Position numbers and translations under genes: made by a program
Assembly (NCBI GenBank): GCA_963815095.1
Contig: CAWFFH010000003.1
Span: 32,001 to 96,000, forward strand
From: Candidatus Bathyarchaeota archaeon
GTDB lineage: Archaea > Thermoproteota > Bathyarchaeia > Bathyarchaeales > Bathycorpusculaceae
Direction: 5' to 3'
DNA: 64,000 bases
Notes under the pieces: model-generated
Seen by the model: only the letters and a program-made list of their open reading frames with translations
Database searches by the model: none
Told to the model about the DNA's origin: nothing
Shown here: positions 23,362-45,391 of the stretch, one piece after another
Layout: every line of letters begins with the position of its first letter
Numbering within the stretch: the stretch's first letter is position 1

Positions 23362-23416
23362 GAAAATAATATTCACAAAAATTTTAAAACAAAAAAAATA
23401 AAAGAAAAGAAGAATA

Positions 23417-24175
23417 TTATTTTTTATTTCTTCTTGTGACTGCAAATGTTCCAAATGCGACAGCGACTAACATTACAACTAAAATGCCTGCAACTGCAGA
23501 TGAATACTCAGGGACTGCTGGTGTTGGTGTTGGAAGTGATACGGTGCTGCTTGTTGGAACGAACATTGCTTGTAAACCGCAGCTATTTGCTGTAACGTCT
23601 AATGCAACTGTGTCTGATGTGTAAGTGTTAGCTCCGTTTGCAGAGACAACTATCCAATAGAGGAACTGGAAGCCAGAACCAGGAACAGCTTGGAAGTTAT
23701 TTGTTGTGCCGGTAGTATAGTTGGTATAGGTTCCTGTGCTTGGATTCGTTTCTCCGCCTATAGAGGCTAAGATATCGATAGTGGCTGATCCACTGGATGT
23801 TGAAGATTCTGTAGCGTTGCTAGTTGGGATGAACATTGCCTGTATTGCACTGCTAGCAACGTCTGGAGTGTATGCCAATGGGTTATCGGTTGAAGTAGTA
23901 GCCCCCGATGCGCTGACAACTTCCCAGCACAAGAATTGGAAGCCTGAGCCAGCAGTTGCATTTAAATCAACTACTGTGCCATTTTCAAAATTGTAGCTGG
24001 TTCCTCCAGGAAGAGTTGCCCCCATCGTTGAGATTGATCCGCCTAATGAAGTGTAGATGTAAACTGAGTCCTGTGTTGCTGCTTTTACACTTGGACTTGT
24101 AGCAACTATTAATAGCGCTGATGTTAGAAAAATCAGAGCAAAAGCTTTAAAGTTTTTAGATTTTGACATTTTCAA
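23417..24175 (-). CDS. Secreted S/T-rich surface protein with two internal beta-repeats and a PEF-CTERM-like sorting signal
   Basis: Signal peptide; two GSGFQFLxWxVVSAxGAxT...QAMFxPTS repeats; PTPTPAVPEYS, TM helix, RRNKK tail. Confidence 0.82.
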   Translation of the reverse strand: MKMSKSKNFKAFALIFLTSALLIVATSPSVKAATQDSVYIYTSLGGSISTMGATLPGGTSYNFENGTVVDLNATAGSGFQFLCWEVVSASGATTSTDNPLAYTPDVASSAIQAMFIPTSNATESSTSSGSATIDILASIGGETNPSTGTYTNYTTGTTNNFQAVPGSGFQFLYWIVVSANGANTYTSDTVALDVTANSCGLQAMFVPTSSTVSLPTPTPAVPEYSSAVAGILVVMLVAVAFGTFAVTRRNKK

Positions 24176-24276: not shown

Positions 24277-26367
24277 TTACCTTTCTATTGATATTTTGCT
24301 GATTCCGGCTTCTTTCTCCAGAATAATCACGTGATCCGCTTTTGCTGCGAACGCTTCACTGTGAGTTACAGCGATGATTTGTTCGATGGCTTTGAATCGA
24401 CTTATCGCTTCAGCTAAACGTTCAATGCTGCCGTCTTCGCTTCCTAAGTTTTCTGTGGGTTCATCAAGCATTAGCATACTCAAGCCATGACCAGTTCTCG
24501 ATTGCATTATCAACTGCCCCAATCCCAAACGGTAAGCAAACGCCAACAAAGTTCGTTCTCCACCAGAAAGGTTACTGACCTCACGGTCCACACCTGTTTC
24601 GCTCTTCACATAGGGCGTGTAAGTCTCATCAATAACCACGTTAAGCATGGGTGTTTCGCCGCCCACCAAGCCATCAAGGACTTGCTGCACAAAATTGCGT
24701 AGAACCTTGACAAATTCGCTTCTCAATTTAGGTTGAATACTGCGGTATGCATCCCGGATAGCTCCCAAGACTTCTACTGTTTTGCGAATTTTCTCCATGC
24801 GCTCCAACTTTTCCTGCGCAAGGTTGATGCGTTCTTTGATATCGTCTAAGCGTTGGGCAAGGTCTTTTTTGCGGTTTTCCTTAGTGCGCAAATCTGATTC
24901 TACAACATAATATTGCTTAAACGCATGTTCCCTGTGTATTCTTGCTTCTTCAACGTCTGAAAGGTTGAATTTGCAGATTTCAAACTGAACCAACTCCATT
25001 TGCGAGCGTAAATCAGAATCTATCTTCTGTTTCTCTTCAAGTTCGTTTGAGATGTTTGTAAGGTTGCTTTCTTCCTCAGTTATCCTTGCTTTCAAATCGA
25101 CATTGCGAGTAACGCATGTTTGCAAATTAGAATACGCTTCAGAAGCAACAGCTTTATTTTTTTGGATATTTGCAACTTCAATTCGAAGCAGGTTGATTGT
25201 TTTTTCCCGTTCAACATTCTCCTGCTGAATCCTTTGCAACAACCCCGTTTTGTATTCGCCAGTTAATGGTTGAATACAAAGCGGACACTTACTCTCCTCA
25301 GCCAATTCGCCAGATCTTTTCTTGTCGGTTTGCATACTTCGCGCCGTGGCTTCTTGGTCCGCCTTCAAACTGCTAATTTTGTCATCAAATTCTGCCAAAC
25401 ATGAACTCAATTGTTCAATGGGCTGGTTGGTTGGTAATCCTGCTTGCTCAAGCTTGCTCAAACAAGCTTTCACTTGAGAGTTAAGCGAGGTTTGACGTTG
25501 CTTCAAGTTATCAACAATTGTTCTTTTGCCTTCTATGCGTTGGTTAAACGAAGCTAAAGTGCTTGTCATGTTGGTTATGTTTGCATTTAATTTGGCTTCT
25601 TTACGTTTGAGTTCTTCCACGGCGAGTTTTTTCTCTTCGAGCCGTTTGAGTTCTGCGTTTGCTTCATCTAGAGCTCGCTTTGCAACTACGAGTTTTTGAG
25701 TTGAATTTTCCAAATCCATCTCTAAGAGGGTGAATTCTTCGCTTGCTCGGTTATAGTCATTGCTGAGCTTTTCTAAGCCGTTAACATCTGGGTCTTTTTC
25801 ATAAACCCGTTTCTCAGTGTCATAATCTCGTTGGTATTGTGCAATGTTGCTCCATGCAATTTCATAATCAGATAAACCAAACAATTCATCCAAACGCTTT
25901 TGCCTATCCCGCGGCGCAGCATCCAACAATTCCTTGAGGTGTTCTTGCCTAAACCAGACGATTTCACGGTACAGGTCCTTATCCAAACCCGTTATTGCCT
26001 TTAGTTGTTCGGCGATTGCGTCGGTTTTCATGCTGGCAACAAGCTTCTCATCTTCATAGAGCTTTAGTTGCTCAAAGTCTTGGCTGATGCTTTTGCCCTT
26101 GCGTTTTAAGCCTCGCGTTAACTTGTAGGTGCTGCCGTTATGACTAAACTGCACTGTAACCCTGCACCAGTCAGCATCTTCCCGCATAAGATACTCGAAG
26201 CTTCTACTTCCTATAGTATCGCCAAATAAAACAAAGTCAACCGCGTACATGACGCTGGATTTGCCCCTGCCTACGCCACCAACTAAACAGTTGAACCCGC
26301 TGGTGAAGGGAACTGTGGATTTGGTGTGACTGCGGATGTTTTCAAGCTGAACTATTTCTATTTTCAT
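24277..26367 (-). CDS. rad50: DNA double-strand break repair ATPase Rad50
   Basis: LENIRSH, Walker A GGVGRGKSS, coiled coil, zinc hook CPLC, LSGGE, LDEPT, VTH. Confidence 0.93.
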   Translation of the reverse strand: MKIEIVQLENIRSHTKSTVPFTSGFNCLVGGVGRGKSSVMYAVDFVLFGDTIGSRSFEYLMREDADWCRVTVQFSHNGSTYKLTRGLKRKGKSISQDFEQLKLYEDEKLVASMKTDAIAEQLKAITGLDKDLYREIVWFRQEHLKELLDAAPRDRQKRLDELFGLSDYEIAWSNIAQYQRDYDTEKRVYEKDPDVNGLEKLSNDYNRASEEFTLLEMDLENSTQKLVVAKRALDEANAELKRLEEKKLAVEELKRKEAKLNANITNMTSTLASFNQRIEGKRTIVDNLKQRQTSLNSQVKACLSKLEQAGLPTNQPIEQLSSCLAEFDDKISSLKADQEATARSMQTDKKRSGELAEESKCPLCIQPLTGEYKTGLLQRIQQENVEREKTINLLRIEVANIQKNKAVASEAYSNLQTCVTRNVDLKARITEEESNLTNISNELEEKQKIDSDLRSQMELVQFEICKFNLSDVEEARIHREHAFKQYYVVESDLRTKENRKKDLAQRLDDIKERINLAQEKLERMEKIRKTVEVLGAIRDAYRSIQPKLRSEFVKVLRNFVQQVLDGLVGGETPMLNVVIDETYTPYVKSETGVDREVSNLSGGERTLLAFAYRLGLGQLIMQSRTGHGLSMLMLDEPTENLGSEDGSIERLAEAISRFKAIEQIIAVTHSEAFAAKADHVIILEKEAGISKISIER

Positions 26368-27566
26368 TTGGCGAGCTCCTCGATGGCTTGCTTGACTTTG
26401 TCGTCTTGTTTACGAGTTAAGGGCTCAATTAAGCTAATTGCGGCTTTGGCAATTCTGTTCGCGTCCTCTTTGCCATACCGTGCAGAAAAAATTTCCACAA
26501 AATACTCAAACCCTTTGGTTTTCAGATCCTTAAAGCCACTTTCGAAGATTGAACGCACAATTTCATCTGACACTACGGTCTCCTTGAGTAGAACAACCGG
26601 ATGAACAAGCAGGGCTTTTGGGGCTGCGCTTCGGATTTTTGCCATGTTGATTTCTGTTCGGCTGGCTTCTGTAGGTAAGGTCCCTTTGAGCACTGGAATT
26701 ATTACTGCCCCTTCAGCTTCAGCATCTTTTACTAATTGAGTAGCTAAGTCGGTTATTTTGGCCGAGGACATTCCTGAGAAGTCTTGTTCTATTATGACGA
26801 ATCTGCGTGGTGAAGTTAATTCGATTAGTTCAGGTTGGACTTGTCCTTTCTCGTCTACTTTCACATGATAGAAGCCTTTGATGTATTTGGCTTCGCCGTA
26901 ACTCACCGTTTCTGTGCATCCGCTGTAAACCAAAATACCGTCTTTAAATTTGCCAAGGTATCTTTCATGAACGTGCCCAGCCGCATAATAACAAAAACCT
27001 CCTGGCAATTCCTCAGGCAAGATTTCCGCTTCAAAAGGTCCCTTAACGCTTGGTAAATCTAATGCGCCGTGAAAAACAAATATGTTTGCAATACCGGTTT
27101 TGGGGGTTGGCTGGTTTTCCTCCATGAATTTTGGGAGAGCCTCTTGGGTTTTATGGCGATTATGGTAGGTAGGGATGCCATAAACGTAACAACAATCCTG
27201 TTTGCTCCAACATGCGCCCTGATGTCTGGGCAAGTGAATGATTAGTCCTGCACTGTCAAGAGGGTAGAGGATTGTGCTCGTTATTGTGTTTGGGGCAGAG
27301 TCGTGTGACCCATCCACCGTTAATACGGGGATTGCGGCATCTTTAAGCCGCTTAAAACTTCGAATAGTATTCTCCAACGTATGGTTGGACGGTCTTGCCT
27401 GATGAAACAGATCTCCAGCAATAATCATGAAATCAGGCTTTAACTCAATTGTCCTATCTACGAGCTCCTTAAAAGCATCATCAAAGTCTTGCCTTCTTAC
27501 TTCTAAGCCATACTGCGAATACCCCAAATGCAAGTCTGCAGCGTGAACAAAGCTAAACGGCTTCAA
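26364..27566 (-). CDS. mre11: DNA double-strand break repair nuclease Mre11
   Basis: ADLHLG, AGDLF, GSHD, FHG, GHVH; overlaps rad50. Confidence 0.93.
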   Translation of the reverse strand: MKPFSFVHAADLHLGYSQYGLEVRRQDFDDAFKELVDRTIELKPDFMIIAGDLFHQARPSNHTLENTIRSFKRLKDAAIPVLTVDGSHDSAPNTITSTILYPLDSAGLIIHLPRHQGACWSKQDCCYVYGIPTYHNRHKTQEALPKFMEENQPTPKTGIANIFVFHGALDLPSVKGPFEAEILPEELPGGFCYYAAGHVHERYLGKFKDGILVYSGCTETVSYGEAKYIKGFYHVKVDEKGQVQPELIELTSPRRFVIIEQDFSGMSSAKITDLATQLVKDAEAEGAVIIPVLKGTLPTEASRTEINMAKIRSAAPKALLVHPVVLLKETVVSDEIVRSIFESGFKDLKTKGFEYFVEIFSARYGKEDANRIAKAAISLIEPLTRKQDDKVKQAIEELAK

Positions 27567-27722: not shown

Positions 27723-28529
27723 ATGAAATGCCAAGCATGCTCTCAAGAGACTTTTCTTCCTTTCCGTTGCCCTCATTGCGGAGGACAATTCTGCGATACA
27801 CACCGTTTACCTGAGAACCATGCCTGCCCAAAAATCGATACTGCCCGAGCCCAAAGACAAGATCAAGTATTAAACCCTGAAGCGTACAATTCATACAATT
27901 ATAGCTATGTTTTTGGTCAGCAACCGTTTCAGCGGCAGCATCGAATTCGTTGGAGCCACAAAGAAGTTCAACATATAGGTATTGCTGCGGCACTCGTAGT
28001 TGGCATCGGTTTTTCGATCGGTTTGTACAGTTTTAGCTGGGGCTGGCTGGTTATGGCTGTCTTCGCCACCCTTATGACAGTGTCTTTTCTGACACATGAG
28101 ATAGCTCATAAAGTTATGGCGCAGAAGGCAGGTATGTGGGCTGAATTTCGCCTCACCACATGGGGAGCCGTATTAACGCTCATTTCCGTGTTTTTGCCAT
28201 TCAAAATGATAGCTCCAGGCGCCATGATGATTGGAGGTCAAACCCCATCTCCAAAGAACTACTTAAAAATCTCAATAGCTGGCGTAATAACCAATATGAT
28301 ATTCTCTGCAACATTTCTGGCTTTAGCGTTTGGTTTACCCGTCAGCGATTATTCAGGCATGCTTTTGTTTGCGGCTTACATTAATGCATTTATGGCTCTC
28401 TTTAACTTGATTCCCTTCGGGATCTTGGACGGTTACAAAGTATTTAGTTTGAATAAAAAAGTGTGGATTGCCGCATTTATCCCAAGTGTTATCCTTACAG
28501 GGGTTATAGCTTGGATACTTTTTGTCTAA
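27723..28529 (+). CDS. AN1-type zinc finger fused to an M50 (site-2) membrane metalloprotease
   Basis: CQAC...LPFRCPHCGGQFCDTHRLPENHAC; HEIAHK; FNLIPFGILDG. Confidence 0.88.
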   Translation: MKCQACSQETFLPFRCPHCGGQFCDTHRLPENHACPKIDTARAQRQDQVLNPEAYNSYNYSYVFGQQPFQRQHRIRWSHKEVQHIGIAAALVVGIGFSIGLYSFSWGWLVMAVFATLMTVSFLTHEIAHKVMAQKAGMWAEFRLTTWGAVLTLISVFLPFKMIAPGAMMIGGQTPSPKNYLKISIAGVITNMIFSATFLALAFGLPVSDYSGMLLFAAYINAFMALFNLIPFGILDGYKVFSLNKKVWIAAFIPSVILTGVIAWILFV

Positions 28530-29142: not shown

Positions 29143-30074
29143 TCACTTGTTAGTGTACGACCGCTGTGATCTAAGAATCTGTTCTATTTGCTCGACTTCC
29201 GCTTGGCTTTCGCTGTTCAAAGGAGTCAACCGTATTTCATCAGGCGACTTAACCCCAAAACCCAGTTCAACCGCCCTTTTGATTTGATCTTGTGCAAAAA
29301 CGTCGGCTTCCCCCACTTTGCCTTTGGCGCCGTACATTTTCAGGATAGCAACGCCAACCGCATCAATTGCAACGCGGTCTTGGCCTGCAAGCAAAAGATT
29401 GGGCTCAACCACCTTGCCCTTATCAGGACCACCCGTAACGAACGCTTTTATCCCATCCATCAAGACAAAGTCGAGGTTGTAGCGGCTGTTAATTTCAGCA
29501 ATCATCTGCCGCTGAAACGGCGAACCATGCAACTCCCACATATAATCGTACATACCATCAGGAACCTTCTTGGCAACTAAACCCACCGAATTCTTGAGCG
29601 ACAAAGTGAAGTGTCCGCCGAACCGATGGGTTTTGAGGCAACAGGTTTGCACGATTTTGTCGGCATCGTGGAAAACTTTAGGCATGTAGAAACCTCTTAT
29701 CCAGTGCGTGTCGTCGCGCTCAAACTTTACCCAGCCGTCTTTGCCGACTTCATCTAAAACTACTTCTTTAAACCCAGCTCACGTGATAGGGCTAAGACAC
29801 CCATTTTTTCGAGCACTTCTGCAGTTTCACCCATACCGCTCCGTTCAGCCAACGTTACCTCTCCAGCACCTGCACCTGTTAGGGTTTCCACTAAAGCTCG
29901 AAGAGTATCAAGATGGGTCGAGGCAGGGAACGGGTCAGCACTGTTAAAATTAGCTTTAAGTGCGACCTGCTTCCCAGAAAAACCAGCTAAATCAAACTTT
30001 TTTAGCAGCGCAGGAACGCCTGTTACCCTGTCGGTTGTTTTAAGAACAAAAACTTCGCCCAAAGAACCAACCAT
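29143..30074 (-). pseudogene. DUF362-family Fe-S protein split by a -1 frameshift at about 29770 (pseudogene, recoding or assembly indel)
   Basis: N-half VALKANFNS..P.PASTH..AERSG and C-half LKTHRFGG..TLSLKNSVG, DRVAIDAVG join in the -1 frame as ELGFKEVVLDEVGKDGW. Confidence 0.8.
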
Positions 30075-30195
30075 AAAAACTCGCCACAAAAACTATAGCG
30101 ATGCTTTCTATTTAGTCTTCACTGCATCAGGCTGCCGCAACAAAACCGCAAGCTCTATATTACACAATGAAACCCTTTTCAAAAGCGAAAAGTGC

Positions 30196-30273
30196 GGGTC
30201 CGTAGCTCAGTCAGGCTAGAGCATCGGACTCTTAATCCGAGGGTCGCGGGTTCAATTCCCGTCGGACCCGCCA
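30196..30273 (+). tRNA. tRNA-Lys(CTT), intronless, CCA encoded
   Basis: Acceptor stem GGGTCCG/CGGACCC; anticodon arm TCGGA-CTCTTAA-TCCGA; T arm GCGGG-TTCAATT-CCCGT. Confidence 0.96.
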
Positions 30274-30283
30274 ATGGTCTCCT

Positions 30284-31014
30284 TCATTTCCACTTTGTGA
30301 GTATTTCTTCTCTTTTGAAAGTTGATCGGCTTAAGAAGAATAATATTACATCAGCGATCAAAACAATACATGATAAAATCAGAAGGTTACTGATATTGAA
30401 AGGAAAAATTCTTCTGCTCCTGCAAATAAGACAGCAACGAACGGAATAAACATAAGGCCAACTATCTGGTTTGCACCTCGAACGTCGCTTACTCGCGATG
30501 ATGCCATCACAGCTACTTCAATGCTAAGAATAGCCGCAAGAGGCGCGAGGAGTAACAACATAACGCCAGCGTTCCAATTGGGAAAATAATAGTAGCCTAA
30601 CCCGCCATTGTACAAAAAGTAGTCCGCTGCCGCCATGAAGATTGATGCTCCAAGCCACGTAGATAGAATAGGCGGTATGAACGATGCGAAGCTTTTTCCA
30701 AGCAGAATCTCGCCATCAGTCGTCGGAGTCGCAAGCAACGGCTCCAACGTCTTTTCAACTTTTTCGCCCACTATACTGTATGCTGCAATCGTACTGGGAA
30801 GAACAGTTGCTAAAACTACAAAGATGTAAATGATTGTTTGGGCGCCTAATGATATTGTCGTGGGGATTCCATACGCTATTTGGTCTCTTAAGACAATTGA
30901 GAAAACGATTGCGATCAGAAGGGGAAGCCCAACAGTATAGAAGATGATGCTTCTCTTTCTGCTGATTACCTTGAGCTCTTTACGCGCTATCTTCCACGGC
31001 ATCCAAGTAGTCAT
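30284..31014 (-). pseudogene. ABC-2 type permease with a -1 frameshift near 30410
   Basis: GEKVEKTLEPLLATP motif; a last TM helix and the tail STFKREEILTKWK* lie in the -1 frame. Confidence 0.75.
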
Positions 31015-31934
31015 TGCGTGTTCTCCTTCACTAATTTCAGGTAAGCGTCTTCTAGCGAGCTGCTAGTGACTGTCACTGTTTCTATGCGTCCTCCTTCTGC
31101 AACGATTGCGCTTATCATCTCAGGATTCTCCTCTTCGGGATTCTCGACATCAACCGTCAGCTGGTTGCCCTCTATGGTCATGTTCTTGACCTGTAGCTTC
31201 TTCAGCGAATCAAGAATCGCCTCATTCACCTGTCTCAACTGAATCACTGTTTTCCTTCCGTGGATAGATCGTTCGAGTTCTTGAGGAGTACCCACCGCCA
31301 TGAGCTTGGTATTCAAGATGCCAATCCTATCGCAGACCCTCTGCGCCTCATACAGGTTGTGGGTATTTAGAAAAATAGTCTTCTTCTCTTTCTTCAGTTC
31401 GAGGATGAATTCTCTTACTGTCTTTGCGGATTCCGGATCTAGATTTGCCGTCGGTTCGTCCATGAAAATTATCTCTGGGTTATGAATTAAGGCACGAGCT
31501 ATCGCGAGTTTCTGTTTCATCCCTTTCGAGAACGCCCCCGATAGAACATTTCTCTTTTCCCAAAGACCAAGCAACTTTAGGAAATATTCGATGCTCTCTT
31601 TCTTTTGAGAGTCACTCAGCCTGTACAGCGTTCCGTAGTATTCTAAATTCTCGTAGGCGGTTAGGGACTCGTAAAGACCCACATTGTCCGGGACGAGCCC
31701 GATTATCTTCCTAATCCTCAGAGCATCCTCTGGTTGGCCGATTTCATAGTTACCAATTCGAGCGGTGCCGCTTGTCTTAGATATCAGGCAACAGAGCATT
31801 CTAACAGTGGTGGTTTTTCCTGCTCCGTTAGGCCCAAGAAAACCAAAAATTTCTCCCTGATTTACTTTGAAAGTTAAATTGTCAACCGCAGTCAGCTCTC
31901 TGAACTTCCGTGTTAGGTTCTCAGTCTCAATCAT
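31011..31934 (-). CDS. ABC exporter ATP-binding protein
   Basis: GPNGAGKTT, FSKGMKQK, MDEPT, SLEDAYL. Confidence 0.92.
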   Translation of the reverse strand: MIETENLTRKFRELTAVDNLTFKVNQGEIFGFLGPNGAGKTTTVRMLCCLISKTSGTARIGNYEIGQPEDALRIRKIIGLVPDNVGLYESLTAYENLEYYGTLYRLSDSQKKESIEYFLKLLGLWEKRNVLSGAFSKGMKQKLAIARALIHNPEIIFMDEPTANLDPESAKTVREFILELKKEKKTIFLNTHNLYEAQRVCDRIGILNTKLMAVGTPQELERSIHGRKTVIQLRQVNEAILDSLKKLQVKNMTIEGNQLTVDVENPEEENPEMISAIVAEGGRIETVTVTSSSLEDAYLKLVKENTQ

Positions 31935-32064
31935 TTAAGCCGCTACCAATCAGCTTCGTTCTCAATAGATAAGCACAAGGGAACGTATATAGTAAGCCAT
32001 GGCAACCCCAACTACAACGGTACAACCACAATACGTCTGGATTGGTTGATCTGGACTAAATCAA

Positions 32065-32381
32065 TTGAAAGAAGAACGACAGTTGCTGAAATTAGTTTGT
32101 TATTCTTCTAACTAATTAAGAGAAGAAGAAGATTGGAAATTTTGCTCTTCTTCTACTCGCTCAATGGCTGCTTCCACTGATAGGCAGAACAACAACTGAT
32201 GGTAGTGCAGTGTTGTTGTTCTTCCATTCAAGTTGAAAGAAGAAAAAATCATTCAAAAAATTGTCAATTTTTTCTTCTTCTAATCGATAATTGTCGTCGA
32301 AACAAAAACTGAGGCAACAGAGTTTATCTGAAAGAAGAAGGACAACACTTCCTGTAGGAACAGCGTCCTTCTTCTTCTAAC
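32065..32381. repeat. Array of five imperfect palindromes (42-54 bp) with GAAGAA/TTCTTC-type arms
   Basis: Units at about 32065-32112, 32118-32159, 32183-32225, 32232-32285 and 32329-32381; consensus TGAAAGAAGAA...TTCTTCTAA. Confidence 0.85.
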
Positions 32382-32410
32382 AAAAAAGAAAGGAAATGAA
32401 TGCAGGATTT

Positions 32411-33346
32411 CTAAAGTCTGCGGGGTTTCTGGAATGGTTGACTTTTTGGTTGGTCAGGGTTCGGTTTGGTTTCTGCTGTTAAGAGTTGTTTTAGTCGTAA
32501 GGATAGTACGTCGCGGTCATTGGGCTGCTGTTGAGTCCATTGTTCACGATATTCTCGGAATTCTTGTCCCGTGATTTTACCTTTTGTTTGCAGCTCGCTG
32601 AGTAACTTTACGAAAGCTCTTAGTTCCAGCTGTTCATTGGTTACTATGTTTATGGTTTTTCCTTCTCCTGAGGGGTTAGTTGTGGGTTTTTCGCTGTCTG
32701 GCGGGGGATAAGTGTTAAACAAGAAAACCGCAAAGTACAAAGCATCCCAGCCGCGGGTCAATGATAAACTGTTTTTAGCGTTTAGCAATTCAGCATTGTA
32801 GTTTTCGTATTCTTGTCCGAGCGAAGAATACTTCGTTTGCCCGCTTGGCACATCAACAACCCGGTTAACGAAATGACGCAAATGTTGATTATTAAAAATA
32901 GGCAGTACTTTGCCACCTTCGTAGTTGAAGCAAAATATGATTTCTTTAGCAAGCTGTTTGTCTTGACCTAACCCGCCAATTCTTTCCCATGGGGCGTCGA
33001 TTTTTTGGGCGAGGGACTTTCGGCTATCCACTGCCGCGCGGAGCAGGTTTTTGAATTCTCCGATTTGTAGGCGGGCGTTGCGGTAAACGTTGGAGCTGTT
33101 TAGGGTTGAGCGGCCAAGGGGTTTGAGGGAGCTTTCTAGGAGGCGGAAGAATTCGCCGACTTCATCAGGGTTTATCTTGAAGAGTTTGTCGGCATCCAAG
33201 TATTCTATTGACCGGAGATTTTCGGTGAAAGGATACTTTTGCCTGAACTCTTTGAGTAATGCAAGCGCTCTATCGACTTCTGTGCGGGTTACTTTGACTT
33301 TGTCGTATGCGGTTGCTTTTTCAAGCATAGTGTTGCTTCGTGACAT
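32411..33346 (-). CDS. Hypothetical protein with an HhH-like core and a C-terminal SHOCT-like segment
   Basis: IGGLGQDKQLAKEIIFCF...VLPIFNNQHLRHF; LSELQTKGKITGQEF; domain calls tentative. Confidence 0.6.
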   Translation of the reverse strand: MSRSNTMLEKATAYDKVKVTRTEVDRALALLKEFRQKYPFTENLRSIEYLDADKLFKINPDEVGEFFRLLESSLKPLGRSTLNSSNVYRNARLQIGEFKNLLRAAVDSRKSLAQKIDAPWERIGGLGQDKQLAKEIIFCFNYEGGKVLPIFNNQHLRHFVNRVVDVPSGQTKYSSLGQEYENYNAELLNAKNSLSLTRGWDALYFAVFLFNTYPPPDSEKPTTNPSGEGKTINIVTNEQLELRAFVKLLSELQTKGKITGQEFREYREQWTQQQPNDRDVLSLRLKQLLTAETKPNPDQPKSQPFQKPRRL

Positions 33347-33468
33347 TTTCTATCAACCAGAGGTTAAGATACAATAGAAATGCAGGGATAACGGTTAAAC
33401 TTTACCGCGTCAGAACCGACTGAAAAAAGATATTAGTCTTTGCGATTGTTGATTTCACGGTTAACGGC

Positions 33469-33879
33469 ATGAAAAAGCAAGTGTTCATTTCAGGTCCCAT
33501 CATTGGCATGGAGAAAGAGCAGGATTATCGCAAAACCATAACTGACATCTGCACCAATGCGGGTTTTGATGTGATTGACCCTTGGAAAAGGGAACGCGTC
33601 ATCTACAACGGAACTGAGGAGTGCTGGTGGGATAAGGTGCCAGTCTTTGATTTTGTCCAAAGAGACCTCGATGACGCCGATCGATGCGACATCATGGTCG
33701 TTTACTTGCCCATACTTTCAGCTGGCGCCTGCATGGAAATGTTCTACGCCAAACGCAAAGGCAAAAAAGTAATAGTTGTATCGGAAGTAAAGTGTCTGAG
33801 CCCATGGATAGTTTTCCACTCAGATGCAATAATAAAAAGCTTCAGCCAACTTGAGGAAGCGCTAAAAGTGTTCATTTAG
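33469..33879 (+). CDS. Nucleoside 2-deoxyribosyltransferase / nucleotide N-hydrolase-like protein
   Basis: VFISGPI, DP, RDL.D.D.CD, SAGACMEMFYA. Confidence 0.8.
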   Translation: MKKQVFISGPIIGMEKEQDYRKTITDICTNAGFDVIDPWKRERVIYNGTEECWWDKVPVFDFVQRDLDDADRCDIMVVYLPILSAGACMEMFYAKRKGKKVIVVSEVKCLSPWIVFHSDAIIKSFSQLEEALKVFI

Positions 33880-35485
33880 GCTTGGGATGTTTGAATTCTT
33901 CTCGGATTGACATCTGACGTCGCTTTCGGTTGTATCCCAGCGAAAAATCGTGGGCGGCATCGCGGATTTTTCGGAGGAGAAGCATCATGCGGTTGTTTTT
34001 GTCAAAGGTTCTAGGTGCAGATTCATCCGGCAGATAGATTTCTTCATGCTCTTTAGCTAAGCCAATTAGAGGAAGCTGTAACCCCAATGTTTGCAAAGCA
34101 TGTTTTGCAGCATTAACTTGTCCTGGTCCACCGTCAATGACTACGAGGTCGGGCAATTGGTTTTTCTCTTCGATTTGGCGCGTGTATCTTCTGGCAACGA
34201 CCTCATTGACAGAAGCAAAATCGTCTTGTCCTCTGAAAGTTTTGATTTTGAATTTGCGGTAGTTTTTCTTGTCGGGTTTTGCGTCCTTGAAACTGACCAT
34301 ACCTGAGACAACGTGTTCGGTACCCAAGTTTGATATGTCAAAGCACTCGATGATGTGAGGCAGCACTGGGAGGTTAAGGTTATTTTGCAAATCAACCAGT
34401 GCATTGTCAACTTCTAAGCCTGATTCCAGGTTTTTCTCAGCCAATTGAACGAGCCCCAACTTATTGGCGCGCCTGGGAATCGTCAATGAAACCGGCGCAG
34501 CCCTCTTTGTTGAGAGAAACTCTTCTAAAGCCTTTTTCTCTTCAAAGCCTTGCCAGCAGGGCTTGTTTAGCAAGATTTCCCGAGGAATCGGGTTTGTTGT
34601 GTAATAGGCCTTTAAGAATTCCTGTTCAATTTGGGGCTGCAAGTCCACTCTGAATTCTTTCTTGCCCAAAAGTACGCCTTTTCTCATGCCCATCTGAACC
34701 GCTAGCATCTTCTCGCCGACCTGCCGAAACACCAGCACATCTTGGTCAAAGCGACGCTCTTTATCGACGATTTGGTGCTCTGTTACGAGTCGTATTGATT
34801 GGATTTGGTTGCGGAGTTCAAGCGCATTCTCATACTGTAGTGCTTCAGAGGCGCTTTGCATTTGGGTTTTAAGTTGCTCAATGGTTTGTTGGTAGTTTCC
34901 GTTTAGGAAGCTGCGTGCATGTCGTACTTGGTCGGCGTATTGTTCGGGTGTGGCTTTGCCGATGCAAGGGGCAGTGCAGAGGTGGATGTGGTAGTTTAGG
35001 CAAGCACGTTTGGGCATTGTTTTGCAGGTGCGCAGTTTAAACACCCTTACGACCAAACGTTGAAGGTCTTGGCGTGTGAAGCCATCTGTGTAGGGACCAA
35101 ACGATTCCAGTTTCCGCGAAACCTTTCGGCTAGTTAGAATCCTCGGAAAAGCTTCCCTTGTAAATGAGATGTAAGCGAAGGTTTTGGCGTCTTTGAGGTT
35201 AACGTTGTACTTGGGAGTGTGCTGTTTGATAAGTTTGTTCTCTAAAAGCAACGCTTCAACTTCGGTGTTGACGATAACCCAGTCTATTTGGCGAATATGT
35301 AGCACTAACTGCCGCGTCTTAGCTGGATGATCCTTGCTGGAAAAGTAGCTTTTGACCCTTGAGCGGAGGCTTTTGGCTTTGCCCACATAAATGATTTCGC
35401 TTTGCTCGTCGCGGTAGAGGTAGACGCCAGGGTCAGTTGGGATATCGCTACTTTTGAAGTCTGAGGGCGAAGCTATTTGAATCAT
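33872..35485 (-). CDS. uvrC: Excinuclease ABC subunit C
   Basis: GIY-YIG (PGVYLY..IYVGKAKSLRSRVKSYF), ECFDIS, IDGGPGQ, RDAAH. Confidence 0.96.
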   Translation of the reverse strand: MIQIASPSDFKSSDIPTDPGVYLYRDEQSEIIYVGKAKSLRSRVKSYFSSKDHPAKTRQLVLHIRQIDWVIVNTEVEALLLENKLIKQHTPKYNVNLKDAKTFAYISFTREAFPRILTSRKVSRKLESFGPYTDGFTRQDLQRLVVRVFKLRTCKTMPKRACLNYHIHLCTAPCIGKATPEQYADQVRHARSFLNGNYQQTIEQLKTQMQSASEALQYENALELRNQIQSIRLVTEHQIVDKERRFDQDVLVFRQVGEKMLAVQMGMRKGVLLGKKEFRVDLQPQIEQEFLKAYYTTNPIPREILLNKPCWQGFEEKKALEEFLSTKRAAPVSLTIPRRANKLGLVQLAEKNLESGLEVDNALVDLQNNLNLPVLPHIIECFDISNLGTEHVVSGMVSFKDAKPDKKNYRKFKIKTFRGQDDFASVNEVVARRYTRQIEEKNQLPDLVVIDGGPGQVNAAKHALQTLGLQLPLIGLAKEHEEIYLPDESAPRTFDKNNRMMLLLRKIRDAAHDFSLGYNRKRRQMSIREEFKHPKPK

Positions 35486-38385
35486 GCAGACTGTTTCACG
35501 GCTAAAACATGTTCTTCAGGCTTAGGGTTAAGTATTTTTTGTAAAAACAGTCCTGTGTAAGAGTTGCTGTTTTTTGAGACTTCTTCAGGTGTGCCCTTTG
35601 CAAGCAGTTCGCCGCCTGCAGCGCCACCTTCGGGACCCAAATCAATGAGGTAATCGCAGCTTTTAATGACGTCGAGGTTGTGTTCGATGATGTAAACGGT
35701 GTTGCCGTTGTCTACTAGTCGATTAAGGACTTTTATGAGGCGTTTAGTATCGTCGAAATGCAGTCCTGTGGTTGGTTCGTCAAGCATGTAAACGGTGTGT
35801 CCTGTTTTGTGTTTGCTGAGTTCGCGGGTAATTTTGATGCGTTGGCTCTCTCCGCCTGACAATGTGGTTGAGCTCTGCCCCATCTTGATGTATCCAAGTC
35901 CCACATCCAGCAGCGTTTCGAGTTTGCGGGAAACACGCGGCGTATTCTCAAAGAACTTGGCTGCTTCCTCAACCGTCATATCCAACACTTCAGCGATGTT
36001 CTTGCCCTTGTAGACTACGCTCAAAGTTTCTTTGTTGTAGCGTTTGCCTTTGCATTCGCTGCACTGAACGTAAACATCAGGAAGGAAGTTCATTTCGATT
36101 CGCAGTACACCGTCACCCTGGCATGTTTCACATCTGCCGCCTTTCACGTTGAAGCTGAATCGGCCTTCTTTGTAGCCGCGTGATTTGGCTTCTTTGGTTG
36201 AAGCGAAAATCCGCCTGATTTCGTCAAAGAGTTTGGTGTAGGTTGCGGGGTTACTTCTTGGGGTTCTCCCGATAGGGTCTTGGTCGATGACTATAACGTT
36301 GCGCACCACGCTTGGGACATCAAGCGATTCATGCTTTCCTATTTTATCCACTTGCTCACCAAACATTTTCCTCAATTCAGGAATAACCGTCAAATTCATC
36401 AATGTACTCTTGCCCGAGCCAGAAACGCCTGTGACACCGCATAACACGCCTAGCGGCAACTGTAAGCTGAGGTTTTTGAGGTTGTTTTCTTTGGCGCCCT
36501 TAACAGTCATGAAGCCGACGGGTTGTCGCCTTGTTTCTGAAACATCGATTTTGAGTTCGCCTGATAGGTATTTGCCTGTGAGGCTTCGGGGGTTTTTCAT
36601 TACTTCTTGCGGAGAGCCTTCTGCAACGATGTGTCCGCCGTGGATGCCTGCGCCAGGTCCCATGTCAACGATGTAGTCGGCGTGGCGCATGGTTTCTTCG
36701 TCGTGTTCAACCACGATTAATGTGTTGCCTAAATCTCGAAGGCGCTGTAAGGTAGCGATTAGTTTGGCGTTGTCCCTCTGATGCAAGCCTATGCTGGGTT
36801 CATCAAGGATATATAGGACGCCCATGAGGTTGCTGCCGATTTGAGTGGCTAAGCGGATACGCTGTGCTTCTCCTCCTGATAGCGTCTTGGCAGCGCGAGA
36901 CAACGAAAGATAACCTAAACCAACGTTCTTAAGAAAACCCAATCGTTCGTTAACTTCTTTTAGCACCTGTTTGGCAATAAAAAGTTCCTTTTCGTTCAAC
37001 TTGGGCGGCAAGTCATGGAAGAAATCCACAGATTCATCGATGGAAAGGTCTGTCACATCAATTATGCTTTTGTCAAGAATTTTCACAGCAAGCACGACGG
37101 GTTGAAGTTTTTTGCCCTTACATGTGGCACAAGGACGAGAAGTCATGTATTTTTCGATGTCTTCTTTGCGCCAATCACTTTCTGTTTGCCGATACAACCG
37201 CATGGTCTGGGGGATTACGCCTTCCCAACCGTCACGCATCCACATGCTGGCGCCGTTTGACCAGTTGCCATTGATTGGTTCTTTATCTCCGTATAGAAGA
37301 ACCTGAAGTTGCTGTTCAGTAAAGTCTTTGATTGGCGTAAAGACGTCAAAGCCGTATTTTTTGCCTACCGTGGCTATTTGTTGTGCTCGCCAACTAAGCT
37401 CCATTGTGCCCTTGTAAACTGCTAAGGCGCCGTCCATGATGGAGAGGCTTGTGTCGGGGATCACTTTGTCTGCGGTTACCTCAGTGATCTCTCCTAGGCC
37501 GTGGCATGTTGGGCATGCGCCAAACGGAGAGTTAAAGCTGAACATCCGCGGCTCGAGGCTTTCAAAGACGATTTCAGGGTGGTTTGGACATGCGCCAAAC
37601 GTGCTGTACATTGTTTCGTCTGCGAATCGTTCAAGCTCCTTTTTCTTTTCGCCTTCAGCTTTTTTAGCGTCGATTATTATCATTGTTCCTTTGCCGACTT
37701 GAAGCGCCTGCTCAACAGCTTCTGAGATGCGTGAGCGCTCTGCATCCTCTATTGTTACGGTATCGATGACTGCTTCAATCCAGTGTTTCTCGTACCGAAC
37801 TAGCTTAACTTCTTCTTTGATGGAGTCGGACTCGTAGATTTTTTGGTCGGCGCGGATTTTGGTGTAGCCTTGTTTTTTGAGGTCTTCGAAGACTTGTTCG
37901 TGTGTGCCTTTTATGCCGCGGATTACGGGCGATAGGAAAGTGAGGGTTTTTGTTTTTTCAGCCATAACGAGGCTGGTGATGTTTTCGGCGCTCTGCGGGT
38001 GGATGCTGCTGCCGCATTTGGGGCAGTGGTGAACGCCTATTCTTGCGAACAATAGCCTGAGGTAATCGTAGATTTCAGTTACTGTTCCGACTGTTGACCG
38101 GGGGTTCTTGCTTGTGCTTTTCTGCTCAATCGAGATTGCTGGCGATAGTCCTTCGATGGAGTCTACATCGGGTTTATCCATGAGTCCCAGAAATTGCCGC
38201 GCATAAGCGCTTAAGCTCTCTACATAGCGCCTTTGTCCTTCCGCGTAAATCGTGTCGAAAGCCAACGTGGATTTTCCTGAGCCTGAAAGCCCAGTTATAA
38301 CTATGAACTTGTTTCGGGGCAACTCTAAATCGATGTTCTTTAGGTTGTGTTCCCGTGCACCTTTAACGGAAATGTTATCTCTCAT
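35482..38385 (-). CDS. uvrA: Excinuclease ABC subunit A
   Basis: GAREHNLKN, two Walker A motifs (GxSGSGKS), two LSGGE motifs, zinc fingers. Confidence 0.98.
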
Positions 38386-38458
38386 AACTTAAACCAAATT
38401 CCTTCTAATTATTTTGTAGTGTTTGACTGGGGGATTAGAACCTTTTTGCGTTAAATCC

Positions 38459-40417
38459 TTAATTTTCGGGCTGCACTATGTCATTTTCTAGTTTCCGAGA
38501 CAGCGCTTTGTTGAGCTCAGCAATTGCATCCCTCAATTCGATGGCGCGTTCAAAGTCCAATTTCTCCGCTGCTTCCCGCATCTCCGCATCCAACTCTATC
38601 ATCTGGCGTTTTATGTCAGATTTGGGCAGGTGCTTGGTGCCTCTGATTATGCCTTCCTTCTTGGAGACACTTTTAACGATGGTTTTAGGGGTGATGCCGT
38701 GTTCCTGATTGAAGCGTTTCTGGAAGCTGCGGCGGTACCAAGTGGTTTCCACGGCGCGCTTAATCGATTGGGTTTCTATGTCGGCGTAAAGGATTACTTT
38801 GCCGTTGACGTTTCTTGAGGCACGCCCGATGGTCTGGATAAGGCTTCGTTCGTCTCGCAGGAACCCTTCTTTATCAGCGTCCAAGATGAATATGGTTGCG
38901 ACTTCGGGGAGGTCTAATCCTTCGCGGAGCAGGTTGATTCCGACGAGAACGTCGAAGTCGCCTATACGCAGCTGCCGTATGAGTTCGATGCGATCGAGGC
39001 TTTCGATTTCCGAGTGCATGTACCTGACGCGAAAGCCTTCTTTAGACAAGTAGTCGGCGAGATCTTCAGCCATTCTTTTCGTCAAAGTGGTAACCAACAC
39101 CCGATCGCCCCGCGTTATAGTTTTCCTAGCTTCTACCATCAAATCCTGCATCTGCCCTTCGATTGGACGCATCTCCACCTCAGGATCCAAAAGCCCCGTG
39201 GGACGGGTGATCAATTCGACTGGTGGACCGCTCTTTTCCAACTCGTATTCGGCTGGGGTTGCAGAGACAAAAAGAACCTTGCCCATTTTCTTCTCGAACT
39301 CATCAAACTTGAGCGGACGGTTGTCGAGTGCACTTGGAAGCCTGAATCCAAAGTCAACTAGGTTCTTTTTGCGCGCAAAGTCGCCATTGTACATAGCACG
39401 AGACTGGGGAATAGTTTGATGGCTTTCATCGATGATTAACAGGTAGTCTTTTGGGAAATAATCCATCAGAGTGAAGGGCGGCTCGCCAGGTTTGCGCCCG
39501 TCGAAGTGGCGACTGTAGTTTTCCATTCCTGCACAGAAACCCACCTCCTTAATCATTTCTAAATCGTAGTTCGTGCGTTGTTTTAGCCTTTGAGCTTCAA
39601 GCGGAGGCAAATTGGGTAACTGTGCTTCCAGCTCTTTTTTAATAAGCTCAAGGGCTAAGGCATGCTTCTCTTCAGGCACCACATATTGGCGAGCTGGATA
39701 AAGTGTAAATCTGTCGAGCGCCGTTTTTACGTCACCGTTTAGCAGATTTACTTCTTTTATTTTCTTAATTGTGTTTCCTTCGAGTTCGACGCGTAAAATT
39801 TCGTTCTCATACGAGGGAACGACGTCCACCGTGTCTCCCCGGACACGAAACCTTCCAGCCTCAAGAACCATATCGTTACGTTCATACTGCATGTCCACGA
39901 GTTCACGGATAAGCTGTTGCCTCGAAATTTGCTTCCCAACCTCAAGTTCAGCAGCCATGGTCTTGAAATCATCAGGGTTGCCTAAGCTGTAGATGCAGCT
40001 TATGCTAGCGACGATTATGGTATCATTTCGGCTAACGATGCTAGAAACTGCGTGCATACGCATCTTCTCTATCTGCTCATTTACCGTGGAGTCTTTTTCA
40101 ATATACATGTCTTGAGCAGGCAAATACGATTCAGGCTGGTAATAATCATAAAAACTAATGAAGTATTCCACTCGGTTATGAGGAAAAAGCTCCTTTAACT
40201 CCGCATACAGCTGAGCTGCCAGGGTCTTGTTATGAGCGATGAGGAGGGTTGGTTTTTGGAGTTTGTTAATTACATTTGCCATAACAAACGTTTTGCCACT
40301 GCCCGTAATTCCCAAAAGCGTTTGTTTGGGTTTTGTGGAGAAGTTTTTCACTAACTGCTCGACCGCGGTTTGCTGTCCAGGCGAGATTTGAAACGGTGCG
40401 ATAAGTTCGAATTGCAC
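38459..40417 (-). CDS. uvrB: Excinuclease ABC subunit B
   Basis: GITGSGKT, YDYYQPE, DESH, GINLLREGLD, QTIGRA; probable GTG start. Confidence 0.97.
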   Translation of the reverse strand: MQFELIAPFQISPGQQTAVEQLVKNFSTKPKQTLLGITGSGKTFVMANVINKLQKPTLLIAHNKTLAAQLYAELKELFPHNRVEYFISFYDYYQPESYLPAQDMYIEKDSTVNEQIEKMRMHAVSSIVSRNDTIIVASISCIYSLGNPDDFKTMAAELEVGKQISRQQLIRELVDMQYERNDMVLEAGRFRVRGDTVDVVPSYENEILRVELEGNTIKKIKEVNLLNGDVKTALDRFTLYPARQYVVPEEKHALALELIKKELEAQLPNLPPLEAQRLKQRTNYDLEMIKEVGFCAGMENYSRHFDGRKPGEPPFTLMDYFPKDYLLIIDESHQTIPQSRAMYNGDFARKKNLVDFGFRLPSALDNRPLKFDEFEKKMGKVLFVSATPAEYELEKSGPPVELITRPTGLLDPEVEMRPIEGQMQDLMVEARKTITRGDRVLVTTLTKRMAEDLADYLSKEGFRVRYMHSEIESLDRIELIRQLRIGDFDVLVGINLLREGLDLPEVATIFILDADKEGFLRDERSLIQTIGRASRNVNGKVILYADIETQSIKRAVETTWYRRSFQKRFNQEHGITPKTIVKSVSKKEGIIRGTKHLPKSDIKRQMIELDAEMREAAEKLDFERAIELRDAIAELNKALSRKLENDIVQPEN

Positions 40418-40593
40418 ATTACTTCCCCACAAATGACGAGAAAAGTTCCAATTAAGATTTAAATTAATAAGTATTGTCTAAAAAGATTGTTTTCTTAGCC
40501 AGTTTTTATTAGGGCTGAATATTTAATTTAGTCAGCGATAAAAATATCCGCTTCTATAAATTAGAAAAAGCAGAGCAGATTACTAACCTTTCT

Positions 40594-42565: not shown

Positions 42566-44074
42566 TTACATTCCTGATTTTAGTCGTCGATAGGTTGTGT
42601 AATCCACATATTCTATGAAGGGATTTTCGGCTTGGAATTTTACAGTGATTTTCTGTCGTTTCCGTTTGTCAAGAAGCTGGCTTGTTGTTCTGAGCAGATA
42701 TGAATCGCTGCCTGCGCCTGAGCCGTAACTTGTAACCAGAATGCGTTCATCAGGTTTAGCAACGTCGAGAACTGCAGCTAAACCTACAAGCGAGGCACCT
42801 GAGTAAGTATTGCCGAACTTTGTTATTTGAAGGGCAGGCAAATATTGCTCATCTTTGAATCCGAGTTCTTTTGCAACTCTCACTGGGAAAGTGGGGTTAG
42901 GCTGATGAGGAACGAAATAGTTTAAATCAGCGGCTTTAACGTTGAAGCGTTCCATCAGTTTAGTGGCAGCTTTGCGAACATGTTTATGGTATGCTGGATC
43001 ACCTGTGAATCTTCCGCCATGCATGGGGTATGGTTCACCGTCTCGACGCCAAAAGTCAGGAGTATCAGAGGTGCAGGAGTACCACCCTTCAACTTCAGCG
43101 ATTACATCCTGTTTTCCATAGATGAATGCTGCGGCGCCGTATCCTACAAAAGAATCTAATTCACCACCAGGGCATCCTCGGGGTGCGGCTTGAGAATTAT
43201 CTGCACCAATAACCATTGCATAGTTTATGCCTGACTGGGGGTAACTAACAAGTGCAGATGCATCTTTGAACATACTTGTGGCTGCTTTACAAGCAAACTC
43301 TGTATCCACTGCATCAACGCTTTGAACGTCACCATCTTCTTCACCTAACTGTAGAACCTGAGCTACTTTTGACGCGATTGGTTTAACGGCATAAGGGTTA
43401 GATTCTGAGCCAACGTAAACTTTTCCAACCCACGCACTATCAATTCCTGAATGGATTAGGGCAAGTTTCCCGGCTTCAACCGCCGCTGTCACAGAATCTT
43501 CATCTATGAAAGGAACGGCACGTTCTAATCCACCGTCTTTTATACGGAAACGTGAGGAGTAAGCGCCATAACCCACAATCCCAGGCAACTCATAGTCTTT
43601 TCTTGGTTGAATCACCTTGTATTCCTGATGTGGATAATACTCGTCCGCTAAGGTAAAAGCTAGAGAGATCGTGGGAACAACTTCGCTCTTTCCTACTGAA
43701 TAACGTCTGCGGAACCGGGGAATTACTTCTCGTCCCTCAAGGCTCGCAAAATCCACATCGTCACCATCACAAATCAGTTGGTCTGTTAGCCGTGCAGGCA
43801 CTCGGATTTTGCCGTCATGGAAAGAGACAATGCCGTAAACATAACTGGATAGTTTCATGAATTTGTTTGTGGGCTCGTTAACGTAAGTGCAGAGTTCCAA
43901 TTTGCCCTTGTCATAGAACAAATCGATGCTATCCATTTTACCGAAGCTTTTTCTGCCGCAGTTGCTGCAGTAGTCGCGCACTTCAAAGTATTCTTTGCCG
44001 CAACTTTGACAACGACATGCCTTTAGACGGTCACCTAAGTAAGAAACACGTCGCTCTATTGGTTCACTACTCAT
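42566..44074 (-). CDS. DUF35 (zinc ribbon + OB) fused to archaeal hydroxymethylglutaryl-CoA synthase
   Basis: N-terminal CQSCG..Y...RDYCSNCG plus OB fold; HMGS motifs GSES, EFACKAAT, DTPDFWRR, PHQPN, GNTYSG, SYGSGAG. Confidence 0.92.
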   Translation of the reverse strand: MSSEPIERRVSYLGDRLKACRCQSCGKEYFEVRDYCSNCGRKSFGKMDSIDLFYDKGKLELCTYVNEPTNKFMKLSSYVYGIVSFHDGKIRVPARLTDQLICDGDDVDFASLEGREVIPRFRRRYSVGKSEVVPTISLAFTLADEYYPHQEYKVIQPRKDYELPGIVGYGAYSSRFRIKDGGLERAVPFIDEDSVTAAVEAGKLALIHSGIDSAWVGKVYVGSESNPYAVKPIASKVAQVLQLGEEDGDVQSVDAVDTEFACKAATSMFKDASALVSYPQSGINYAMVIGADNSQAAPRGCPGGELDSFVGYGAAAFIYGKQDVIAEVEGWYSCTSDTPDFWRRDGEPYPMHGGRFTGDPAYHKHVRKAATKLMERFNVKAADLNYFVPHQPNPTFPVRVAKELGFKDEQYLPALQITKFGNTYSGASLVGLAAVLDVAKPDERILVTSYGSGAGSDSYLLRTTSQLLDKRKRQKITVKFQAENPFIEYVDYTTYRRLKSGM

Positions 44075-45263: not shown

Positions 45264-45391
45264 TACATTTTCCCCTTTTTGGATAGCATACAAGGTTTTC
45301 CAAAACGACTATTAAGGGTTTGCCATATCCCCACGAAAAATTCGAATAACAAGGTCAAAAGCAAACCATAAAAAAATAACTTAACTCCTCT

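Follow-up and report, generated by a model that had tools for sequence, protein, structure and literature searches.

What does an array of five hairpins do in the spacer between two genes of an archaeon, and does it belong to that spacer alone? The question arises from a stretch of 64,000 nucleotides (hereafter the window) of a Candidatus Bathyarchaeota archaeon, taken from contig CAWFFH010000003.1 (positions 32,001 to 96,000) of assembly GCA_963815095.1. A spacer of 476 bp (31935-32410 in the numbering of the window, which is used throughout) separates two minus-strand genes and holds all five hairpin units (32066-32380). Comparison with other archaeal genomes reveals that an ordered, dispersed mosaic of such hairpins exists, with constrained arms and a location mostly at gene 3′ ends. 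The array is best understood, with a probability of about 0.6, as one locus of a lineage-specific family of mosaic hairpin repeats in Bathyarchaeia-type archaea, which would be an analogue of the repetitive extragenic palindromes (REPs) and bacterial interspersed mosaic elements (BIMEs) of bacteria and would probably act as a barrier or terminator at gene 3′ ends. Among the options listed in the initial annotation of this DNA, that of an undescribed REP-like array fits best.

Five hairpins and their relatives in other genomes

The five inverted-repeat units are found where the initial annotation had placed them, in a non-coding gap, and their stems are confirmed. None of the coding frames of at least 20 amino acids (aa) looked for in the spacer resembles a gene, and the start codon of a 27-aa open reading frame (ORF) after unit 5 is missing in L097, the orthologous locus of a relative. 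Units of the family measure 40-56 nt, with arms that consist of short triplet runs of purines or pyrimidines. Three stem classes occur: class A begins with TGAAAGAAGAA and ends with TTCTTCTAA, class B ends with TTCTTCTAC, and class C pairs GAACAACAAC with GTTGTTGTTC. In the window, TGAAAGAAGAA is present three times, each time at the start of one of units 1, 4 and 5, while TTCTTCTAA is present four times, three of them at the ends of these same units, which confirms the common ends described earlier for the three units. The stem of unit 1 (AGAAGAACGACA/TGTTATTCTTCT, 12 nt) is 83% complementary with two mispairs, that of unit 2 (AGAAGAAGA/TCTTCTTCT) is perfect over 9 nt and 92% complementary over 13 nt, and that of unit 3, in which GAACAACAAC pairs with GTTGTTGTTC, is perfect over 11 nt. 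The gaps between units of the window (8-45 nt) are free of ORFs.

The clustering of these hairpins is beyond chance. Three of the four perfect inverted repeats of at least 11 nt in the window lie inside the array, and 4 of its 21 hairpins (at least 10 bp, at most one mismatch) fall within 257 bp (Poisson P ~2e-6). When folding of the whole spacer is compared with that of dinucleotide shuffles, z reaches -6.1 on the minus strand and -4.8 on the plus strand, and none of 100 shuffles is equally stable. Folded singly as RNA, the units have z values of -2.05 to -4.49 on the plus strand (-3.30 for unit 1, -2.05 for unit 2, -3.23 for unit 3, -3.38 for unit 4 and -4.49 for unit 5) and of -2.59 to -4.14 on the minus strand. 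Folded singly as DNA, they range from -1.05 (unit 1, not significant) to -4.74, all other units being significant.

Related units are found in other archaeal genomes. A pattern scan of genome contigs for the shared termini (TGAAAGAAGAA/TTCTTCTAA, separated by a gap of 15-45 nt) returned at least 118 loci. Among the matches listed, at least 25 loci from at least 18 assemblies are of Bathyarchaeota/Bathyarchaeia type (24 so labelled, and L091, labelled ‘Crenarchaeota archaeon’, which was added for the likeness of its unit), and five assemblies contain two or three loci each, on different contigs. The 93 other pattern matches serve as controls. The median perfect stem is 10.5 bp in 26 Bathyarchaeia units vs 7 in the 93 controls, where a perfect stem of 7 is forced by the pattern itself (Mann-Whitney p = 5.6e-15), and the mean folding energy is -14.9 kcal/mol in Bathyarchaeia units vs -9.0 in controls. 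A covariance model built from 29 class A units (three of the window and 26 from related loci) detects 8 extra units of at least 30 bits beside the seeds in Bathyarchaeia-type loci; in the 93 control loci (266 kb), the top score outside the seeds is 22.3 bits. Arrays, counted as at least two family-type hairpins no more than 350 nt from the seed, are present in 14 of the 25 loci, and none of the nine hairpins located elsewhere in those loci (~43 kb) is of family type. An array that has no copies in this or related genomes and folds no better than shuffled sequence, the case that the initial annotation held against its own proposal, is thus contradicted on both counts.

Unit types and linkers recur together at loci that are not orthologous. 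Units 2-5 with their linkers (170-230 nt) align at 74-78% with L010, L014 and L074 (blastn, MAFFT), whose flanking genes are unrelated to those of the window, and shorter alignable stretches are found in L046, L092 and L116. The order B-C-A is common to the window (units 2, 3 and 4), L023, L045 and L116 and is reversed in L074. Class C stands immediately before class A in L010, L014, L037 and L097 as well, and class B units come before class C at other loci too. L009 (A-B-C) and L037 (C-A-B) are permutations of one cycle. The window reads A-B-C-A-A and its orthologue L097 only C-A-A, the ~140 nt with units 1-2 being missing from the latter. Linkers are conserved at unrelated loci (e.g. TCGATA, CAAGT and GTTAAATGGTTGCTT), and in some subtypes apical motifs are conserved (TTCC-N-GGAA and GGTGGTAGCACC). 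The first of these motifs forms the apex of unit 5 and is found again in the genomes of relatives, so that cores first described as unrelated do have relatives elsewhere. Class A units share a conserved, asymmetric foot (T-T-G-A ... C-T-A-A, in which one A.C mispair is fixed) and the ends TGAAAG ... TTCTAA.

Details of particular hairpins can be added to this picture; their coordinates in L009, L037 and L094 are given with the seed unit taken as plus strand. One class C hairpin, down to its loop GTTGGTGGTAGCACCGGG, shows 100% identity over 42 nt between L009 (2099-2140) and L037 (1955-1999), two loci of different assemblies with unrelated flanking genes, and this identity hints at strong constraint or recent transfer. 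In L037, the class A unit that adjoins this hairpin has nearly the same loop. In L094, a hairpin located beside a class A unit (194-237) has arms of the type (GTA)n(GTC)n / (GAC)n(TAC)n; a triplet period in the arms may be characteristic of such elements in general.

Constraint on the arms and position at gene ends

The observation that inner arms differ between units yet stay complementary holds for the family as a whole. At the seven inner stem pairs that are not forced by the pattern, the 29 class A units show 24 cells with double (compensatory) change, compared with 12.2 +/- 2.8 in shuffles, none of 500 of which reaches 24. Pairing of the inner stem is 87.5% in register vs 47-74% once the partner is displaced by 1-3 columns. 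For the B-C-A mosaic of 8 loci, RNAalifold predicts the stems of units 3 and 4, and the loops differ freely.

Three pairs of corresponding loci give a measure of the rates of change, namely the window and L097 (flanking genes kept), L074 and L075 (flanking families shared), and L023 and L107 (85% over 356 nt). Identical positions number 172/238 in stems (72%), 76/146 in loops (52%, p = 7e-5) and 102/168 in linkers (61%, p = 0.018 vs stems). The arms are thus slower-evolving than loops and linkers, which argues for constraint rather than neutral decay. Across the family, loop length varies from 3 to 28 nt with the arms kept; in unit 4, it is 17 nt in the window vs 3 nt in L097, the stem remaining intact. 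Such variation in arm spacing fits a stem-loop, not a dimer site on duplex DNA. Mispairs are balanced (G.T 14 vs A.C 17), so that no strand is marked as the folded one. Thus, of the earlier proposal that selection acts on a folded hairpin of RNA or single-stranded DNA, the hairpins and their covariation stand, while the two kinds of molecule are not separated by the mispair counts.

The position of the units with respect to genes is equally informative. They are intergenic in all 13 loci with 2-kb flanks and in the window. With simple ORF calls (at least 80 aa), seven of these 14 spacers are convergent, six are tandem and one is divergent. A gene 3′ end faces the TTCTTCTAA side of the seed unit in 13 of 14 sources (two-sided binomial p ~0.003), or in 12 of 13 if L074/L075 are taken as one. 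The flanking genes are diverse and mostly of the housekeeping type, with products that include a methylthioadenosine-type phosphorylase, a proteasome subunit, PEP carboxykinase, a pyruvoyl arginine decarboxylase, ornithine carbamoyltransferase, NucS, Hjc, a radical SAM enzyme and QueT. A run of at least five T is located in the descending arm of 19/29 units vs 9/93 controls, and on both strands in 13/29 units vs 3/93 controls; in unit 4, a T6 run lies in the descending arm on both strands.

A mechanism at gene ends may be proposed on this basis. The units would form stem-loops in read-through transcripts of the gene whose 3′ end faces them and, each unit being palindromic, stem-loops could arise from either strand. 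Such stem-loops would block 3′ exonucleases or aid termination, and would thereby insulate neighbouring transcription units. The oligo-T run of the descending arm would assist in many units.

Several observations weigh against the interpretation of the array as a REP/BIME-like barrier or terminator. Copies within the same assembly are only 77-80% alike over 55-80 nt and give no sign of recent copying, which means that their spread is old or that copies are held apart by selection. Copy number per genome is only bounded (at least 1-3 loci per assembly among the matches listed, with strict termini), and the 64-kb window contains just one array. Between non-orthologous copies, units 3 and 4 keep the sequence of their arms (compensatory change in 0/23 pairs), and this conservation would be explained by sequence-specific recognition no less than by structure. 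With n = 14, convergent spacers are in excess without reaching significance, which is suggestive only. In L046, L076 and L074/L075, the next unit is inverted, so that orientation follows no strict rule. Among the 29 units, 10 have no T run, units 1 and 5 of the window included, and the run therefore cannot be the whole explanation; moreover, the T6 run that follows the stop codon of the 311-aa gene upstream of the array could stop transcription ahead of the hairpins. Lastly, the GTAG/CGTC head of REPs is not found at the ends of Bathyarchaeia units, GTAG being present only inside some loops, and, unlike in REP systems, neither the window nor the 26 flanking ORFs yielded a gene of the RAYT or HUH type. 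The search, which covered window ORFs of at least 110 aa and these flanking ORFs, found no transposase or integrase gene either.

Known systems and competing explanations

Comparison with bacterial REP/BIME and REPIN/RAYT systems reveals clear likenesses. In both cases, short imperfect palindromes are extragenic and located mostly where gene 3′ ends meet; as in REP/BIME, they form mosaics of few unit types with set linkers, and their sequence is lineage-specific. Roles in termination and in the protection of mRNA 3′ ends have been proposed for the bacterial elements (accessible parts of PMC3733652 and PMC2817692). The differences concern size, composition, host and arrangement. REPs are 20-40 bp long, according to the accessible part of PMC3733652, whereas those of Bathyarchaeia measure 40-56 nt and have loops that are large and variable; their stems are AT-rich triplet runs (GAA/TTC, CAA/TTG), whereas REP stems are GC-rich, and their host is archaeal, not bacterial. 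As to number, REP/BIME elements occupy many loci per genome, and among the matches listed the Bathyarchaeia hairpins occupy up to 3 loci per assembly. BIME units strictly alternate, whereas Bathyarchaeia units mostly have the same orientation and are inverted only in the L046, L076 and L074/L075 loci.

For archaea, the RepRanger study indicates that intergenic palindromes other than terminators exist (PMC12306157). Under ‘REPs’ it counts all palindromes other than predicted terminators in a few genomes of Euryarchaeota and Crenarchaeota; its text contains 0 occurrences of ‘Bathyarchae’, and its accessible passages describe no family with fixed termini or mosaic order (PMC12306157). In the open-access literature, no account of this hairpin family in Bathyarchaeia/Bathyarchaeota was found.

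The terminators of archaea are not known to form a sequence family or to need a hairpin, whereas the termini, arms and unit order of the Bathyarchaeia elements are conserved between loci and 10/29 units have no T run. The likeness to U-tract terminators lies in the T run of the other 19/29 units and in the position of arrays at gene 3′ ends. Archaeal termination is reported to depend on U-tracts with aCPSF1 (PMC8716108). AT-rich hairpin repeat families that fill intergenic DNA are also known as selfish palindromes of organelles, e.g. in Volvox (part of the text of PMC2670323), but these belong to another genetic system, and in Bathyarchaeia the density is low (one array/64 kb) and the arms are constrained at corresponding loci.

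Selfishness is also the essence of the explanation that competes best with a REP/BIME-like role at gene ends. The units could be a non-autonomous palindromic element without host function, similar to miniature inverted-repeat transposable elements (MITEs) or REPINs and copied by a hairpin-recognising enzyme encoded elsewhere, e.g. an IS200-type Y1 HUH transposase. This is a real possibility, although we consider it improbable. It would account for the mosaic at non-orthologous loci of at least 18 assemblies among the matches listed, for units 1-2, which are in the window and not in the orthologous L097, and for the 42-nt class C hairpin shared without change by L009 and L037. The class A foot, conserved and asymmetric, has the properties expected of a recognised hairpin foot, and the only archaeal Y1 proteins reported, according to the accessible portion of PMC6006769, are of the IS200 type, IS200-type TnpA being the sole Y1 subclass of this domain. 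These points are countered by the absence of flanking direct repeats of at least 3 nt, the mark of a target-site duplication (0/29 units have one), by the lack of a transposase in the window and the 26 flanking ORFs, by the age of same-assembly copies (77-80% identity) and by the slower evolution of arms than of loops and linkers at the three corresponding-locus pairs. MITEs proper fit poorly, target-site duplications being present in 0/29 units; near-identical copies in one genome and a parent IS with matching ends are further traits of MITEs, and same-assembly copies are 77-80% identical, while the related-locus flanks in which a parent IS was sought contain no transposase. Phage and plasmid records gave no blastn match in distant mode.

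Less probable still is a multi-copy gene for a structured noncoding RNA (ncRNA), with its own transcript of ~250 nt and 3-5 hairpins. The fixed order of hairpins and the linkers conserved at unrelated loci speak in its favour, as do the conserved apical motifs of some subtypes. However, the elements have no Rfam match: in the 29500-34000 part of the window (E-value mode), a tRNA alone passes and the hairpins score 20-23 bits vs thresholds of 55.8-70, and in 11 related loci (gathering mode) only a tRNA passes. No conserved upstream stretch could be a common promoter, the sets are found in both orientations and in permuted or truncated forms (A-B-C, C-A-B, B-C-A-A), and the balanced mispairs mark no single RNA strand.

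It is very unlikely that the array is a set of duplex operators for a regulator of the ABC operon located downstream of it, or an RNA leader or attenuator of that operon, as had been suggested. Inverted repeats 75-390 nt upstream of the putative ABC promoter are what either function would require, but the mosaic is found elsewhere beside unrelated genes, often between convergent 3′ ends without a promoter. An arm spacing of 3-28 nt argues against operators. A conserved TATA-like box between the array and the ABC start places the array outside the 5′ untranslated region of the operon, which argues against a leader.

Integron attC sites, or another array of tyrosine-recombinase sites, are already contradicted, even though attC sites are imperfect palindromes of similar length (42-54 nt in the array) that are thought to be active as folded single strands, and GTTAGAA appears in units 1 and 5 when the minus strand is read: the RYYYAAC / GTTRRRY cores are absent (just 11/29 family units have, after TAA, the C required for GTT on the opposite strand, and the far end has no AAC), there are no cassette ORFs between units and no integrase in the window ORFs scanned or in the flanks of related loci, and the arrays are dispersed beside housekeeping genes rather than gathered on a single platform.

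Two further candidates were rejected. Small ORFs or leader peptides within units are not indicated, the arrangement NTG...TAA being in frame in 10/29 units, which is the chance rate of one third. A CRISPR array, set aside by the initial annotation as well, is excluded by direct repeats of merely 14-15 nt with 80-87% identity, which are the arms of the inverted repeats themselves.

The locus, its surroundings and the significance of the family

The features of the spacer and of its neighbours are collected in Table 1. 

Table 1. Hairpin units, putative signals and genes around the spacer
Feature	Coordinates	Strand	Description
tRNA-Lys(CTT)	30196-30273	+	Convergent with permease
ABC-2 permease	30379-31014	-	Second gene of ABC operon 30379..31934
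DrrA-like ABC ATPase	31011-31934	-	Downstream of array; first gene of ABC operon
TATA-like box	31985..31992	-	CTATATAC within GGGAACGTATATAGTA; ~55 nt upstream of ABC ATPase start codon; putative promoter element
Unit 1	32066..32111		Class A (TGAAAGAAGAA ... TTCTTCTAA); covariance model 42.2 bits; not in L097
Unit 2	32120..32158		Class B (GAGAAGAAGAAGA / TCTTCTTCTACTC, terminal TTCTTCTAC); not in L097
Unit 3	32183..32225		Class C (AGAACAACAAC / GTTGTTGTTCT); arms nearly invariant between loci
Unit 4	32234..32283		Class A; 13-bp perfect stem; covariance model 58.4 bits
Linker, units 4 to 5	32284..32328		Starts TCGATAA; TCGATA/TTGATA follows class A units elsewhere too
Unit 5	32329..32380		Class A; 12-bp perfect stem and apical TTCC/GGAA stem; covariance model 53.9 bits
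T6 run	32382..32387	-	23 nt past stop of 311-aa gene, right before unit 5; putative terminator-like tract
Upstream gene	32411..33346	-	311-aa conserved hypothetical protein; 3′ end toward array

Along the minus strand, the stop codon of the 311-aa gene is followed by the T6 run and then by units 5 to 1. The T6 run may be a terminator-like U-tract of archaeal type, and the array would then sit between this tract and the putative promoter of the ABC operon. The block of the TATA-like box is kept in L097, and the DNA beyond it diverges; identity between L097 and the window is 87% over the ABC start and the region upstream, and 78% over 320 nt that comprise the array and the 3′ end of the 311-aa gene. 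L097 belongs to a genome labelled Candidatus Bathyarchaeota archaeon, the nearest relative found, and this likeness makes a Bathyarchaeia-type archaeon the most likely source of the window. In both genomes, the array and the ABC gene are found at the same place, and the neighbours of other loci are housekeeping genes, which does not fit the link with accessory genes or a tRNA island that had been envisaged. The array had also been described as bordering two ABC genes that directly follow tRNA-Lys. Adjacency to the ABC genes is correct, but the array is upstream of them, the minus strand encodes the genes on either side of it, and the tRNA is convergent with the ABC genes.

The 311-aa protein has no match in Pfam or NCBIfam. 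Its 411 homologues at E <= 0.001 are mostly of ~305-316 aa and labelled ‘hypothetical protein’, and it is a conserved family without assigned function. Its closest homologues are mostly of 305 aa, and the second Met (residue 7) may therefore be the true start.

The window, with a GC content of ~43%, encodes archaeal RqcH and an archaeal-type HMG-CoA synthase. It also contains a full bacterial-type set of uvrB, uvrA and uvrC (33872-40432, minus strand), in surroundings rich in DNA repair genes (Rad50/Mre11 at 24277-27566, RadA, a Dpo4-like polymerase, UDG and two Ssb-like OB-fold proteins). Parts of DUF362 are distributed over two adjacent minus-strand ORFs (29143-29685, profile positions 93-199; 29760-30089, positions 1-68), which looks like one gene broken by a frameshift or stop, or like a sequencing error. 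In the HMG-CoA synthase ORF (42566-44074, minus strand, 502 aa), the archaeal model covers residues 183-497 only, and the N-terminal extension of ~180 aa may be a fusion or the result of a mis-called start; a thiolase gene (44067-45293) lies directly downstream. In the ORF at 27723-28529 (plus strand), an AN1-type zinc finger at the N-terminus is joined to a peptidase domain of the M50 (site-2 protease-like) type. A separate AT-rich palindrome at 23363-23427, in the spacer after the CbiM gene, pairs AAAATAATATTC ... GAATATTATTTT over 12 perfect bp around an A-rich loop of 37 nt and lies outside the GAA/TTC hairpin family.

For annotation, the arrays may be a source of confusion, since small RNA genes, attC sites or small ORFs could be called in their place. 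Conversely, the repeats raise the question of their use as lineage markers in metagenomes, the host class being abundant and uncultured. Another question is how archaea that terminate transcription at U-tracts would use RNA or DNA hairpins at gene ends.

Beyond the family itself, it is tentatively suggested, with odds that are against it, that Bathyarchaeia have their own REP/BIME-type system, in which a hairpin ‘grammar’ of three classes (A, B and C, in fixed cyclic order) has been kept for a long time across many species. Bacteria are known to have defined REP/BIME families, together with enzymes by which these are copied; in the open-access text searched, archaea are represented only by generic counts of intergenic palindromes (PMC12306157). 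If the suggestion is true, a hairpin-recognising machinery new to archaea would be expected, either a RAYT analogue that copies the units or an RNA- or DNA-binding factor that would use them as bidirectional terminators or insulators, and no REP-like family that is defined and constrained at host level would have been known from archaea before. A related question is whether a RAYT-like domesticated enzyme exists in archaea.

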